Source: a virus. From it: DNA of 15,489 nucleotides. The stretch lies in the UHGV virus genome UHGV-0097030; one strand, 5' to 3'. The first letter of the stretch is position 1. Every line of letters starts with the position of its first letter. The position numbers and the translations under genes were made by a program. Positions 7,743-12,725 of this stretch are shown one piece after another. The notes beneath the pieces were generated by a model. It worked only from the letters and a program-made list of their open reading frames with translations. It ran no database searches and was not told the DNA's origin.

Positions 7743-8024
7743 ATGGTTACTATTGCAACTAAAAGCAAGAAAGCGGCTCGCATCGAGTCAGCCTTGCTGA
7801 ACAAACTGGCACTGATGGGGCAGAAGACATTCGCTCGAGCGATGGGGGTTCCTGAATATCAGGTAAGCCGATGGAAGAATGGTTTCTTCTCGCAGGTAAG
7901 CATGATGCTGGCTGTTCTGGAATACGGAATCGAAGACGATGAAATGGCTGAGCTGACTAAGCGGCTTGCCAATTATCTGACAAAAGAAAAAGCCCAGAAG
8001 AACGGCGAATTCTTCGAGGCCTAA
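7743..8024 (+). CDS. cII: CII transcriptional activator
   Basis: 93 aa. ARIESALLNKLALMG...QVSRWK...SMMLAVLEYGIEDDEMA aligns with lambda CII (LRIESALLNKIAMLG...QISRWK...SMLLAVLEWGVVDDDMA). Confidence 0.85.
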   Translation: MVTIATKSKKAARIESALLNKLALMGQKTFARAMGVPEYQVSRWKNGFFSQVSMMLAVLEYGIEDDEMAELTKRLANYLTKEKAQKNGEFFEA

Positions 8025-8058
8025 TGTAGAAAGACTGGATCAATCCACAGGAGTAATT

Positions 8059-8703
8059 ATGACATACGAAAATGACAAATTCCAGGTTCTGAAGAGCATG
8101 AAGGTGCCAGATGATTTTAAATCAAATGGCTTTGTTTATGTGCTTTCTAATGAGTGCATGCCAGGAATTTATAAGATTGGGATGACTAAGCATTCACCAG
8201 AAGTTAGGGCTAAAGAAATTTCAGCCTCTACTGGCGTTCCTAAGCCATTTAAGGTGATAGCAGCCTTTCATTCAAATAATCCCGCATCAGATGAAAAACT
8301 CATTCATAAAGCCTTTGCAAAAGAGAGGCTTAGTGATAATCGAGAGTTTTTCAAGCTTGAAGATAATGATCTTTCTGAATCTCTAAATGAAATAAGGGCG
8401 CTGGTTGGCCCTGAAAGAAATGGCGAGACGGCAGAATACGCAATTTACGACTCATTCATTTCTTTTCGCCATGAAAATGAGCTTGATCTTAATGAGGAGC
8501 TTATAGAGCAAGGTCTGGGTAGTGTAGTTGGTCATCTTCCTGCGGTGAAAAATTTCCTTATTCGCGCCGGAATTGATTACGCGAAGCAACTGATAAGCAA
8601 ATATAACTCATCGATAGTTATTAATACAGATGGCAGTGTGGTGATGGTTAAGTCTCTTGAAGCCCAATGCTTTGATGCGGAGGTTGGAAATGAGCCTTGC
8701 TGA
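8059..8703 (+). CDS. T5orf172-domain (GIY-YIG-like) protein with uncharacterised C-terminal domain
   Basis: 214 aa. ATG with AGGAG 5 nt upstream. N-terminal half carries the T5orf172/MUG113 pattern (GFVYVLSN...GIYKIGMTKHSPEVRAKEI...PFKV...EKLIHKAFAKERL...REFFKL). AT-rich relative to the flanks. 3' end overlaps the O-like gene start. Confidence 0.7.
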   Translation: MTYENDKFQVLKSMKVPDDFKSNGFVYVLSNECMPGIYKIGMTKHSPEVRAKEISASTGVPKPFKVIAAFHSNNPASDEKLIHKAFAKERLSDNREFFKLEDNDLSESLNEIRALVGPERNGETAEYAIYDSFISFRHENELDLNEELIEQGLGSVVGHLPAVKNFLIRAGIDYAKQLISKYNSSIVINTDGSVVMVKSLEAQCFDAEVGNEPC

Positions 8704-9532
8704 AGTATTTTACCTGCCGAAGAGTGAACCTGTTGAACAGGAGCGAAGAGTGGCTGATATCGATGATGGTTACACCAGATTCGCTAACGAGCTGCTGGAA
8801 GCTATCGCAAGTGCCGATTTAACCGCTCGCCAGTTGAAAGTTATGCTGGCCTACGTCCGGAAAACATATGGATTCAATAAGAAAACAGATCGAATAGCCG
8901 ATGAGCAAATTGCTCAGTTAACAGGACTGTCAAGGCAGAATGTTAACAAGGCTAAAAAAGAACTGATTTCAATGAATTGCCTGTTTATGGATGGAAATCA
9001 AATCGGTGTAAACAGTGAGGTATCTGCGTGGCAATTCAGCAAGTGTCTCCAAGTTAGCAACTTTGTCTCGAAGTTAGAGACAAAAAATGTCTCCAAATTA
9101 GAGACACTCAATGTCTCGAAGTTAGAGACACACAAAAGACATTCTTTAAAGACAAAAGAAAATATTAATAAACCCCCTATATCCCCCAAAAAAGTTTCTC
9201 AGAAGTTCGACCCGCTAGAAACAGAGTTGCCTGATTGGTTATCAGCAGAAACATGGTTGTCGTGGGTTACCTATCGCAAGGAGATAGGTAAGTCGATCAA
9301 GTCTAGGCAAAGTGTCACTCAGGCTATCAACGTTCTAAGCAGAAGTCTGGAGAAGGGATATACACCTGAAGAAATTATAAACCAGAGCATCGCCAGTAGT
9401 TGGCAGGGGATTTTTGAACCCAAGACTCCAAAGGGGAAATCTCAACCGAGGCCGCAGCAGCGAGCTATGCAGGAAAACTTTGCCGCCAAAGATTACGGGC
9501 AAACTGAAATGCCTTCATGGGCGCAGGAGTGA
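8690..9532 (+). CDS. Replication initiator / replisome organiser (O-like) containing ori iterons
   Basis: Track ORF 8657..9532; ATG at 8690 (MSLAEVFYLP...) preferred. N-terminal winged-helix replisome-organiser-like region (DGYTRFANELLEA...LTARQLKVMLAYVRKTYGFNK). Iterons inside the coding sequence encode the repeated peptide SKLETxNVSKLET. Confidence 0.8.
   Translation: MSLAEVFYLPKSEPVEQERRVADIDDGYTRFANELLEAIASADLTARQLKVMLAYVRKTYGFNKKTDRIADEQIAQLTGLSRQNVNKAKKELISMNCLFMDGNQIGVNSEVSAWQFSKCLQVSNFVSKLETKNVSKLETLNVSKLETHKRHSLKTKENINKPPISPKKVSQKFDPLETELPDWLSAETWLSWVTYRKEIGKSIKSRQSVTQAINVLSRSLEKGYTPEEIINQSIASSWQGIFEPKTPKGKSQPRPQQRAMQENFAAKDYGQTEMPSWAQE
9044..9130. repeat. Origin iterons (four 19-bp palindromic repeats) followed by an AT-rich stretch
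   Basis: Four copies of TGTCTC-n-AAnTTAGAGACA at 9044, 9064, 9088 and 9112 (the first degenerate). AT-rich segment at 9131-9200. Arrangement resembles lambda ori within O. Confidence 0.8.
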
Positions 9533-9534
9533 AC

Positions 9535-10380
9535 ATGACGCTGGATGAAAAGATCTCCCAACTGGAGAAAAAACTTGCAGAATTGAGTTCTCCGCCAATT
9601 GCTATCGAGCATACATCTGTAGAAATTGGCACTGGCATCTGTGAAAAACATGGTGAGTTTGAGCAGCGTAACCGTTACTCGACTGGGCCAATTAAGTTTG
9701 CCTCAAGACCTAGCGAATGCCCGGAATGCATGAGAGATGAGCTTATTCGGCTACAGGAAGAGAAGATTAAAATCGACGAGGAATCACGTAAGCGCAATGT
9801 CGAGTTTATGTTGAATAATCTTGATATTCCTGAACGATTCAAGGGTTGCACACTACAGAACTACGAGCCAGTCAACGACGATGCAAAGAGAGTGCTCAGG
9901 GTGTGTCAGGCATACGCCAGCAAATGGCCTGAGAGGTTACAGAAAGGCGGTGGGCTGGTTATGTGTGGAAAGCCTGGTACTGGAAAGAATCATCTTGCAC
10001 TGGCTATCGCCCGGCACGCAATTACGGAACATCAAAGCTCAGCTATTTTCACAACGGCGCTGAAAATTGCCAGAGAATATAAATCAACATGGTCGAAAAA
10101 CTCCACCCGCACAGAGGATGAAGTGATCCGACAGTTCACTAAACCTGACCTGCTAATTATCGATGAGGTTGGTGTGCAGTTTGGAAGCGAGGCGGAAAAG
10201 ATGATCATGTTCGAAATCATCAACACCCGCTACGAGCGCATGAAGCCAACAATCCTGATTAGCAACCAGAGCAAAGATGAACTGTCTGCATTCATTGGTG
10301 AGCGTGTTATTGACAGGATGAATGATGGCGGCGGGTGCACTCTTGCGTTTACATGGGATAGTTACAGGAGCAGATCGTGA
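9535..10380 (+). CDS. DnaC-type helicase loader (AAA+ ATPase, IstB-like)
   Basis: Track ORF 9517..10380; ATG 9535 has AGGAG upstream. Walker A GKPGTGKNHLALAI and Walker B LLIIDEVG. N-terminal Cys/His cluster. Occupies the lambda P position. Confidence 0.85.
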   Translation: MTLDEKISQLEKKLAELSSPPIAIEHTSVEIGTGICEKHGEFEQRNRYSTGPIKFASRPSECPECMRDELIRLQEEKIKIDEESRKRNVEFMLNNLDIPERFKGCTLQNYEPVNDDAKRVLRVCQAYASKWPERLQKGGGLVMCGKPGTGKNHLALAIARHAITEHQSSAIFTTALKIAREYKSTWSKNSTRTEDEVIRQFTKPDLLIIDEVGVQFGSEAEKMIMFEIINTRYERMKPTILISNQSKDELSAFIGERVIDRMNDGGGCTLAFTWDSYRSRS

Positions 10381-10667
10381 CTGGAAAAGAAATCATCCTG
10401 GAATATCTGAAAACTCATGAACAATTCTCCCCACATGAATTAGCACTGATCACCGGAATACCAAATAACAGAATCGCTCAAGCAGCAAGGCATATGGTGA
10501 AACAAGGACATTTGAGTGTTGTTGAGCGTAAGTGGAAGACGGTTATTTATGCAAAACGCAAAGTGAAGAAGGAGCCAATTAAAAGAAATCCAGATGGTAC
10601 GGGGTGGGGATGTGCAAATCCAATGACGGCGTTTATTAATAGGGCGCTTATGGAGGTAAGGCAATGA
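10377..10667 (+). CDS. Hypothetical protein with HTH-like segment
   Basis: 96 aa. GTG start overlaps the upstream stop (GTGA) with AGGAG upstream. HELALITGIPNNRIAQAARHMVKQGHL looks like an HTH. Followed by an intrinsic terminator. Confidence 0.5.
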   Translation: MTGKEIILEYLKTHEQFSPHELALITGIPNNRIAQAARHMVKQGHLSVVERKWKTVIYAKRKVKKEPIKRNPDGTGWGCANPMTAFINRALMEVRQ

Positions 10668-10693
10668 CCATCTACATCACTGAGCTAATAACA

Positions 10694-10724
10694 GGGGCTA
10701 TTTACACAGTAGCCCTTTTTTATT
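10694..10724 (+). terminator. Intrinsic terminator
   Basis: Hairpin GGGCTA-tttacaca-GTAGCCC followed by TTTTTTATT. Confidence 0.6.
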
Positions 10725-11733: not shown

Positions 11734-12130
11734 ACTAAGAAGCCCCATCCATCAGCAGAACGCCATTCAAGCCATCCAGCAAATCCTTCCAGACCCAACC
11801 AAACCAATCGTAGTAACCATTCAGGAACGCAACCGCAGCATTCGGCAAAATGCACGCCTTCACGCGATGCTATCTGAAATAAGTAAGAAGGCTACATATC
11901 ATGGAAAAGCAAGAAATATTGAGTTTTGGAAGGGGTTATTCGTTTCTGGTTGGCAGATTGCAACCAACCAGCACCCTGAGATTATATCAGGGTTAGAAGG
12001 TGAGCTAATAAACATCAGAGAGAGTACGGCGACTCTATCTGTAAAAAAAATATCCGAAATAATGGACTACATAGAAGCATATTGTGCCATGAACTCAATT
12101 CATCTTAGCGAATGGAGGAATTATGATTGA
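11714..12130 (+). CDS. ninB: NinB (Orf-family recombination mediator), mosaic
   Basis: 138 aa. The first 42 residues (MRKLTFELRSPIHQQNAIQAIQQILPDPTKPIVVTIQERNRS) are near-identical to lambda NinB as recalled. The remainder is divergent but alignable (QNxxL...HG...WK) and AT-rich. Confidence 0.75.
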   Translation: MRKLTFELRSPIHQQNAIQAIQQILPDPTKPIVVTIQERNRSIRQNARLHAMLSEISKKATYHGKARNIEFWKGLFVSGWQIATNQHPEIISGLEGELINIRESTATLSVKKISEIMDYIEAYCAMNSIHLSEWRNYD

Positions 12131-12725
12131 GGTTTGGGTAGATATCGAAGGAATTCCATTTTATCAGGTTAGCAATAAAGGAAATTTCAGGTCTATTACG
12201 AGGGAAATTACAGTAACATCAACCAGACAGAGGCCATATAAGAAAATAATTAATGGCACTAGCGTAAAACCATTCAAGTGCAAGTCGACAGGATATCTTC
12301 AAATAAAGGTATACGGTAAGAAATACAGCGCCCACAGGATAGTTGCGAAAGCATTCTGTACAGGGTTCTGTGATGGCTTGGTAGTTAATCACAAAAATGG
12401 GCAAAGAGATGACAATAGGGCTGAAAACCTTGAATGGGTATCACATTCTGAAAACTCAAAGCACGGATATAAACAAAATGGAAGAATACCTATATCGCTA
12501 GGTAAATTTAGTGGTGATCATCCTGCCAGTAAAGCTGTTATTTCTACTGACATGAAAACTGGGGAGGAGGTTTATTATGAAGCAGCTATGGATGCTGTCA
12601 GAGAAGGATTTGATAGTTCGTCAATTAGTCGTTGCTGTAATGGCGAAAGCTCATATCACAAAGGAAGATTCTGGCGATTTGCAAATGAAACAATGAAAGC
12701 GCGATGGGGAGACAGGGCGGCATGA
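12123..12725 (+). CDS. HNH homing-type endonuclease
   Basis: 200 aa. ATG with GGAGG upstream. N-terminal NUMOD4-like [20 protein letters not shown] motif [30 protein letters not shown]-rich. The last residues KARWGDRAA match the lambda NinB C-terminus. Confidence 0.8.

Follow-up and report, generated by a model that had tools for sequence, protein, structure and literature searches.

What is a predicted nuclease gene doing between the cII-like activator gene and the replication initiator gene of a lambdoid prophage? The gene (8059-8703, plus strand) encodes 214 amino acids and lies in a stretch of 15,489 nucleotides of the virus genome UHGV-0097030, called the window below. The host element is a lambdoid (P22-like/lambda-like) prophage. 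A sequence-only reading had described the gene as an AT-rich, horizontally acquired moron carrying a T5orf172 domain, and had suggested three roles for it: exclusion of competing phages, anti-defence, or a selfish homing-like element.

Gene Context and Expression

The neighbouring genes are those first described: a cI-like S24 repressor (6640-7341, minus strand); a cro-like HTH protein upstream of the nuclease gene; a cII-like activator as the left neighbour (7743..8024, plus strand; PF05269, E=6.7e-30); an O-like replication initiator (8690..9532, plus strand; PF04492, E=3.7e-36; phrog_678); and a DnaC-like helicase loader (9517..10380, plus strand; IstB_IS21, 1.8e-18; phrog_50, 1.4e-86). The phage also encodes Erf, NinB, and RusA, and the same prophage has a second, canonical HNH/NUMOD4 endonuclease gene. 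A repeat search (families D1 and D2) identified four iteron-like repeats of the form TGTCTC[C/G]AA[G/A]TTAGAGACA, spaced 20-24 bp apart (9041..9135, no strand assigned). They presumably mark an origin inside O, about 340 bp 3′ of the nuclease gene, which we take by analogy to correspond to lambda ori.

The nuclease gene begins with an ATG at 8059, and the Shine-Dalgarno (SD) sequence claimed for it is present: AGGAG at 8049-8053, spaced 5 nt from the start codon (segment 8049..8061, plus strand). This is the only signal in the 34-bp gap that follows cII; a plus-strand scan for promoters and terminators between cII, the nuclease gene, and O gave nothing beyond shuffle expectation. O has an SD of its own, GGAGG at 8679-8683, before an ATG at 8690 (segment 8679..8692, plus strand), both within the 3′-terminal part of the nuclease gene. 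In the phage Bas106 and in RefSeq prophages, O is annotated as starting at the position equivalent to this ATG, so the two reading frames overlap by 14 nt, in agreement with the overlap first reported. With no intervening signal, the region is consistent with co-transcription from pR, and the operon layout indicates that the nuclease is most probably made early from the pR transcript; the layout thus accords with the early co-expression proposed by the sequence-only reading, although it is not proof of it. Translation of the nuclease and of O is probably coupled.

On the minus strand, an oop-like antisense RNA with a terminator and an extended −10 is predicted at 7972..8061; the extended −10 is TGTCATAAT, the reverse complement of 8056-8064. 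We assume its function by analogy with lambda oop. In the window this RNA folds as a pair of hairpins with a U-run after them (z = −2.56); in N7, a relative in which the nuclease gene is missing, a TG-extended promoter (TTGAGT-17-CATAAT) lies over the ATG of O and a terminator with a 14-bp stem lies in the 3′ end of cII. The linker ACTGGATCAAT(C/T)CACAGGAGTAATTATG is kept at E. coli, Klebsiella, Pantoea, and Enterobacter loci, and the RNA, terminator, and −10 are together predicted to constitute this conserved linker and the left recombination joint. A further minus-strand pair, a promoter-like site (8736..8707) and a terminator-like site (8412..8395), could give an antisense RNA over the 3′ half of the nuclease gene; the counts of such sites are within the shuffle range. 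An Rfam search of the whole window gave no match.

Base composition bears out the earlier description in part. Total GC of the nuclease gene differs only modestly from that of the window (0.402 against 0.445), which places it at the 9th percentile of same-size windows and makes it no outlier; third codon positions are clearly lower, with a GC3 of 0.349 compared with 0.46-0.56 for cII, O, and DnaC. Apart from these positions, the AT-richness is marginal.

A T5orf172 Nuclease Domain and an Orphan C-Terminal Domain

The N-terminal domain (aa 24-112; 8128..8394, plus strand) is of the T5orf172/MUG113 (GIY-YIG-like) nuclease class. The profile search for which the sequence-only reading had called gives support from Pfam for both families, each above its gathering cut-off: MUG113 (PF13455) on aa 38-111 (E=4.3e-16; 59.7 bits, cut-off 22.3 bits) and T5orf172 (PF10544) on aa 24-112 (E=2.3e-15; 57.4 bits, cut-off 20 bits). 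A search of NCBIfam gave no meaningful match. Residues G24, Y27, Y38, K39, G41, T43, R50, E53, E79, H83, R95, E96, F97, and F98 are invariant in 38 homologues; they include the two motif tyrosines (Y27 and Y38), the conserved arginine (R50), and the His/Glu residues of the metal site (E79, H83, and E96), and they conform to the GIY...YIG/Arg/His/Glu pattern of the superfamily, with putative catalytic roles assigned by motif position. The structure prediction that had also been proposed yields a confident AF2 model with the GIY-YIG alpha/beta fold, and its nearest folds are the GIY-YIG nucleases SLX1 (the best match) and I-TevI. Profiles, motif residues, and fold all agree with the class that the earlier reading had assigned, and the protein is a predicted nuclease. 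The domain class is already known, and the gene carries a generic RefSeq annotation ("GIY-YIG nuclease family protein").

PADLOC relates the same domain to two defence-associated profiles, PDC-S57 (E = 6.4e-29) and PD-Lambda-1 (E = 8.5e-12; aa 23-112 against profile positions 355-449 of 496). Full-length membership was rejected for both: the best PDC-S57 profile is covered at positions 3-93 of 212 only, and Pfam finds no DUF4041, the nuclease domain being all that is shared with SNIPE/PD-lambda-1.

The C-terminal half (aa 113-214; 8395..8700, plus strand) is an acidic orphan domain with a predicted secondary structure of a-b-a-a-b-b-a. As first reported, it resists assignment: no Pfam family was found even at E<=1, and neither a PDB sequence search nor a BFVD viral-structure search with this half gave a match. 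A profile search with the domain against 1.84 billion representatives returned 14 proteins, all of the same two-domain architecture or fragments of it. Its acidity is family-wide (pI 4.1-5.0, net charge −5 to −11). No DNA-binding module is recognisable in the nuclease protein, and an hhalign comparison indicates that the C-terminal domain is unrelated to the winged-helix N-terminal domain of O (probability 0.04).

Prophages of Escherichia, Klebsiella, Pectobacterium, Pantoea, and Cronobacter encode homologues equal in length to this protein (55-83% identity), and a second clade comprises proteins of ~230 aa with about 35% identity. In a one-genome-per-species collection, full-length relatives are confined to Enterobacterales. 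The BASEL phage Bas106 has a copy with 99.5% amino acid identity, also between cII and O, that is annotated as hypothetical. Proteins of sister clades have an SSB-tail-like C-terminus (...DDSDIPF, ...GIYGPxxPxEF). An apparent natural fusion of the nuclease to O (P0032) was rejected because scattered 1-2-nt indels, most of them in homopolymer runs, separate its contig from the window, a pattern typical of assembly errors.

Cassette Boundaries and Start-Codon Capture

When the window is aligned with Bas106, N7, and Sf101, the sequences are identical through ATGACA (ACTGGATCAATCCACAGGAGTAATTATGACA) and divergent beyond it; identity with cassette-free relatives returns at GAACAGGAGC inside O. The segment between these points is a cassette of 670 bp (8065..8734, plus strand), where cassette-free relatives have 42 bp encoding codons 3-16 of a lambda-type O. 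Over 8735-10695, N7 and the window share 99.0% identity, and N7 is missing 8065-8734; its cII is joined directly to O, O starts exactly at the position of the nuclease ATG, and the 42-bp counterpart of the cassette is MTNTAKILNFGRGNF. Phage mEpX1 and three E. coli prophages (L101-L103) likewise are without the segment and match the window at 99% to its right, and Sf101 has a 48-aa open reading frame in the cII-O slot.

The cassette is larger than the nuclease reading frame. It consists of that frame minus the first two codons, together with a new SD, a new ATG, and 15 codons of O, so that the first ~15 codons of O (8690-8734) are included. These codons (MSLAEVFYLPKSEPV) are cassette-derived here; the N-terminus in N7 and mEpX1 is MTNTAKILNFGRGNFA. 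The nuclease takes over the ribosome-binding site, the ATG, and the ACA codon that serve O in empty genomes, its SD and ATG being those that start O in cassette-free phages. In a Klebsiella relative and in IMG/VR relatives, the nuclease stop codon overlaps the ATG of a lambda-like O N-terminus (MNTAEILNF), and because of this overlap the original event looks like a clean insertion just behind the initiator start. This tidy start-codon-capture design is, with the orphan C-terminal domain, the notable feature of the locus.

A moron, by the definition of Hendrix, is an extra gene with its own promoter and terminator that is expressed from the prophage. That label does not hold for the nuclease gene, which has neither signal and borrows the ribosome-binding site, ATG, and second codon of O. 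We therefore rejected both a classical moron and a lysogen-expressed defence gene: the gene lies within the pR operon, and the PADLOC matches are to its nuclease domain only.

Distribution in E. coli

Among 5426 complete E. coli genomes, the nuclease gene is present in 19, in every case with at least 99% identity. The O allele to the right of the cassette occurs in 46 genomes, of which 19 (41%) have the cassette and 27 lack it; three of the cassette-free examples (L101-L103) were inspected. The variable presence that the sequence-only reading had wished to see surveyed is thus found, and an insertion polymorphism exists at the cII-O junction, with N7, mEpX1, and the 27 of 46 E. coli genomes representing the empty form. 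A core replication gene was rejected on the same evidence: empty alleles exist, and since cassette-free genomes share the O allele, the nuclease gene is accessory.

The cII allele of the window is found in 527 genomes, in which the slot holds DUF2740, other small open reading frames, or nothing. Through the ~21-bp conserved linker, the cassette is joined to no fewer than 3-4 distinct types of cII allele, and the empty form is also joined to several; with several cII alleles for each form, the nuclease gene therefore sits exactly on the boundary between the immunity and replication mosaic segments. A linked SNP at 8055 is A in 18/18 cassette-bearing loci and C in 5/5 empty loci.

Conservation of the lambda-type O 5′ end displaced by the cassette is extreme: a 58-nt probe has 1801 matches of ≥95% identity, spread over 1345 of the 5426 E. 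coli genomes, with up to four such ends per genome. The cassette has not spread over these many available sites.

Conserved Position before Replication Initiators

The family shows a linkage to initiators that goes beyond what the sequence-only reading had described. In five of five genome contexts (the window and four others), the nuclease gene is directly upstream of an initiator gene; across these contexts, the gene upstream of it is cII or YdaT and the loader is lambda-P-like or DnaC-like. More distant T5orf172 genes precede an HTH_36/DnaD-like initiator in Salmonella phage S107, an O-like protein in Burkholderia phage KL4, and an HTH_36 protein in Stenotrophomonas phage CUB19. Nearly all of 80 IMG/VR loci have a 240-340-aa open reading frame that starts 0, −1, or −4 nt from the nuclease stop. 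The downstream proteins of these loci include 65 unique ones, of which 54 match phrog_5810 ("replication initiation protein") and the rest are mostly O-like or DnaD-like; by Pfam, the same 65 include 19 Phage_rep_O, 5 HTH_36, and 1 DUF1376.

The family almost always adjoins the 5′ end of an initiator gene, and three or more initiator families are involved. This constant position may reflect functional coupling; it may also reflect nothing but the rigid lambdoid gene order, in which any occupant of the slot precedes the initiator. Aromatic-ended tails are found in 35 of 41 relatives before NIKPGFF-/HTH_36-type initiators, compared with none of 14 before O-like initiators.

Possible Roles of the Nuclease

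Among the three roles first suggested, the selfish, homing-like one fits best, and the cassette probably cuts DNA to a selfish or competitive end. We tentatively propose that the protein acts like a homing endonuclease, as a free-standing nuclease made early from pR, a reading that is plausible rather than probable. When the phage grows lytically in a cell where a related phage or prophage with a cassette-free lambda-type O 5′ end is also present, the nuclease would cut the rival's cassette-free junction, at or near it. Recombinational repair from the cassette-bearing genome, involving Erf, NinB, and RusA, would then copy the cassette; in an equivalent outcome, the cut would exclude the rival's immunity/replication junction. 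The C-terminal domain would provide target recognition, either directly on DNA or via a protein partner, and the carrier genome would be immune because the insertion replaces the 42-bp site. The sequence data show the family of the protein, its intact motif residues, the edges of the cassette, its variable presence, and its constant position; we infer the nuclease activity, the cleavage target, and the gene conversion.

Several properties of the locus would suit such an element. The identity of the domain by Pfam, motif, and model, the precedent of T5orf172 genes in other phages, the optional nature of the cassette, and the abundance of lambda-type sites all appear to favour homing, and the lack of a promoter or terminator, the clean insertion behind the initiator start, and the presence of the second HNH/NUMOD4 gene also count for it. 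Two features expected of a free-standing homing endonuclease gene are found here: presence/absence polymorphism at one site (N7, mEpX1, and L101-L103) and an adjacent conserved essential gene, the cassette lying behind the start codon of the initiator O. Against homing stand the acidic C-terminal domain, with no recognisable DNA-binding module, and the population data. In E. coli the cassette is always found with one O allele, and in 19 genomes despite about 1800 sites; with a single O allele and so low an occupancy, it does not behave as an efficient invader would. The nuclease and the neighbouring initiator have diverged roughly in parallel, and long residence would account for this no less well than repeated homing. 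The family also keeps the same position before unrelated initiator families, which would not be predicted for a sequence-specific target internal to O.

That position bears on a second explanation, which is possible but the less likely of the two: a replication-linked accessory nuclease, brought by the C-terminal domain to the initiator, the replisome, or stalled forks, would act on intermediates of replication or recombination to the benefit of the phage itself, with the SSB-tail-like C-terminus serving for recruitment in the sister clades. It might supply recombination-dependent or rolling-circle replication with the nick or break it needs, or resolve branched DNA in the manner of SLX1, a structure-specific nuclease and the best fold match. 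The place of the gene directly before the initiator, in the five contexts, the three distant phages, and nearly all IMG/VR loci, argues for such a role, as do the phrog_5810 assignment of 54 of the 65 unique IMG/VR downstream proteins and the gaps of 0, −1, or −4 nt, which suggest translational coupling; yet the position may just mirror the rigid lambdoid order, since DUF2740/orf48 also precedes the initiator. The acidic C-terminal domain resembles a protein-binding module more than a DNA reader. Tail type co-varies with initiator type (35/41 against 0/14), a correlation that is confounded by shared ancestry. The gene is nevertheless dispensable, being absent beside 99%-identical O-DnaC modules, and lambda itself has no such gene.

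Rather unlikely, in our estimate, is an inter-element weapon, in which an early nuclease would destroy the DNA of the host or of a rival (another lambdoid prophage, a satellite, or a plasmid), whether co-resident or superinfecting. Its specificity would derive, as that of SNIPE does, from localisation or a protein partner, or else, as that of Odn does, from a DNA-binding domain. Effectors of the T5orf172 class are indeed found in SNIPE/PD-lambda-1 (PMC13190303), in the PADLOC candidate PDC-S57, and in the anti-satellite nuclease Odn (PMC10448857). Early expression would suit induction, when several prophages compete, and a single E. coli genome can hold up to four lambda-type O 5′ ends. However, the PDC-S57 and PD-Lambda-1 matches involve the nuclease domain only, and the protein has no transmembrane (TM) segment or DUF4041. 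Its C-terminal domain, unrelated to the winged helix of O, is not found outside the family, and nothing points to a DNA-binding domain taken from an initiator in the manner of Odn. Protection of the lysogen is excluded, because a gene within the repressed pR operon cannot provide it.

Elements of the last two explanations are combined in one that we consider more doubtful than either. The protein would be a dedicated partner of the replication module and no homing enzyme. Its C-terminal domain, or in sister clades an SSB-mimic tail (...DDSDIPF, ...GIYGPxxPxEF), would bring the nuclease to forks or to the complex at the origin, where it would either sabotage co-induced rival lambdoid phages or satellites or make the break by which the phage leaves theta replication for the rolling-circle or recombination-dependent mode. 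A protein without catalytic activity that binds DNA or regulates, modulating for example pR, oop, or ori-region transcription, is very improbable: the gene does displace the −35 region of the oop-like promoter, between cII and ori, and T5orf172 was reportedly first read by Iyer, Koonin, and Aravind as a DNA-binding module, but the full GIY-YIG constellation is invariant in 38 sequences, which regulation alone would not need, and the protein as a whole is acidic.

If the homing-like reading proves correct, a temperate lambdoid phage provides a simple and testable example of a T5orf172 cassette, and a nuclease placed on the classic immunity/replication mosaic joint could help to explain why this joint recombines so frequently. 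If instead the linkage to initiators is functional, the orphan C-terminal domain and the SSB-tail-like ends of the sister clades may represent a new way of directing a nuclease to the replication machinery. Bas106, as carrier, and N7, as its natural empty-site partner, make a tractable experimental pair.

Comparison with Known Systems

T5orf172 is the established nuclease domain of many phage homing-endonuclease genes (HEGs), which cluster beside essential genes, replication genes included, and at boundaries of genetic exchange, and which usually also encode Zn-finger or RepA_N DNA-binding domains (Barth, Dunham & Seed 2023, PMC10448857). Like the ICP1-type HEGs of that study (PMC10448857), the gene described here is small and free-standing and has the same Pfam domain with intact motif residues; like T5orf172 HEGs in general, it adjoins an essential gene at an exchange boundary and is present or absent between near-identical genomes. 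Unlike them, it has no CapR, DUF723, DUF4397 Zn-finger, or RepA_N domain, and an acidic orphan domain stands in their place. The carrier also differs from that of the ICP1-type genes, being a temperate lambdoid phage, and its homing-like role is a proposed one.

I-TevI and the Seg proteins of T4 are basic proteins in which the parts that bind DNA (HTH, Zn-finger, or NUMOD) are well defined. The protein of the window, in contrast, is acidic and shows no such module, and its sequence likeness to them is confined to the motif residues. ICP1 Odn has an active T5orf172 domain and cuts the origin of a satellite (PMC10448857). Both systems tie a T5orf172 nuclease to replication-origin biology, but the specificity domain of Odn is a copy of the RepA_N initiator domain of its target, whereas no initiator contains the C-terminal domain described here. 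Borrowing of an initiator domain for DNA binding, after the Odn model, was accordingly rejected, on the hhalign probability of 0.04 and the restriction of the domain to its own family among the 1.84 billion representatives.

The nuclease domain of SNIPE/PD-lambda-1 is an active DNase, its activity is abolished by E414A, and its targeting comes from localisation and protein contacts (PMC13190303). The nuclease domain here is homologous to it and to that of PDC-S57, for which a literature search found nothing. SNIPE is a host defence protein with a TM segment and DUF4041; the gene in the window, unlike it, belongs to a phage early operon that is repressed in the lysogen.

Within lambdoid phages, the closest parallel in position is the P22 orf48/DUF2740 family, which occupies the same slot between cII and the initiator and shares the linker and the ATGACA start; its members differ in being ~48 aa long and in having no nuclease domain. 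The protein described here is a further predicted free-standing phage T5orf172/GIY-YIG nuclease, carried on a kind of cassette that is already known in phages.

Regulatory Elements at the Insertion Site

The window appears to retain an oop-like antisense RNA unit at the 3′ end of cII (7972-8064, minus strand), predicted from two hairpins with a U-run (z = -2.56); its extended -10 element, TGTCATAAT, overlaps the ATGACA start. The -35 matching this -10 in the cassette-free phage N7 is TTGAGT, within codons 6-8 of O; in the window it is displaced by the nuclease gene. With the nuclease gene in its place, insertion of the cassette may lower expression of oop and thereby change the control of cII.

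A promoter-like site in the first codons of O (TCAACA-18-TAAAAT; 8707-8736, minus strand) and a terminator-like hairpin within the nuclease gene (8395-8412, minus strand), both from a sequence scan, could delimit a putative antisense RNA of about 300 nt across the 3′ half of the nuclease gene; the counts of promoter- and terminator-like sites in the window scan, this pair included, were not above those of shuffled controls.

Replication Genes and a Second Nuclease

Four iteron-like repeats, TGTCTC[C/G]AA[G/A]TTAGAGACA, each internally palindromic and spaced at 20-24 bp, lie within the O gene (9041-9135) and form the presumed replication origin. Three IMG/VR relatives (L022, L028, and L030) have O-like open reading frames (ORFs) that differ in length, and in ungapped comparison they part from the window sequence from about the iterons onward, which together suggests indels in or near the iteron region. 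Farther 3′, just beyond O, the cassette-bearing prophages of Escherichia coli TST3 (L018) and B1_2 (L019) have DnaC-like loader genes interrupted by insertion sequences (ISKpn26 and an IS3-family element); both prophages are probably replication-defective.

The prophage of the window holds a second nuclease cassette at 12123-12725 (plus strand). Its 200-aa ORF resembles canonical HNH homing endonucleases, on the basis of matches to NUMOD4 (1.5e-13), HNH_3 (8.2e-12), and an I-HmuI-like NUMOD domain. The ORF overlaps the end of NinB and falls within a stretch of low GC content (0.36-0.39), and an HNH endonuclease is likewise placed after NinB in a related prophage (L020).

Fusions and Related Architectures

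Among PHROG profiles, phrog_8130 (434 positions) has a match from the nuclease domain and also from 36 of the 65 downstream initiator proteins, and the nuclease match to phrog_8430 (439 positions) is confined to profile positions 275-439; these patterns indicate that some phage records may contain fused or mis-called nuclease-initiator ORFs. In one protein, P0032 (L104; ENA ERZ1714338 contig_1816), the nuclease C-terminus appears to be joined in frame to O. Relative to the window, this contig has scattered indels of 1-2 nt, mostly in homopolymer runs, so the fusion was rejected as a natural protein and is most likely an assembly artefact.

Vibrio phage K303 (L007) encodes a 319-aa protein (2995-3954) in which the T5orf172 domain is N-terminal and precedes a weak match to a ParA/MinD-like P-loop (CbiA, 0.0021), and about 70 similar records carry a like protein. 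It has the T5orf172 domain in common with the window nuclease but differs in architecture.

The 214-aa window nuclease is without the C-terminal tail of its sister clade (relatives of about 230 aa). Sister-clade tails, taken from IMG/VR loci L038-L094 and proteins P0029-P0040 and P0055-P0063, include GIYGPEQPVEF, ...QSDDSDIPF, ...IPDFDDAPF, and ...EEPIPF. Of the 41 proteins located before initiators of the NIKPGFF or HTH_36 type, 35 have aromatic-ended tails, as against none of the 14 located before O-like initiators. The sister-clade tails resemble the C-terminus of E. coli SSB, which is acidic and Phe-terminated.
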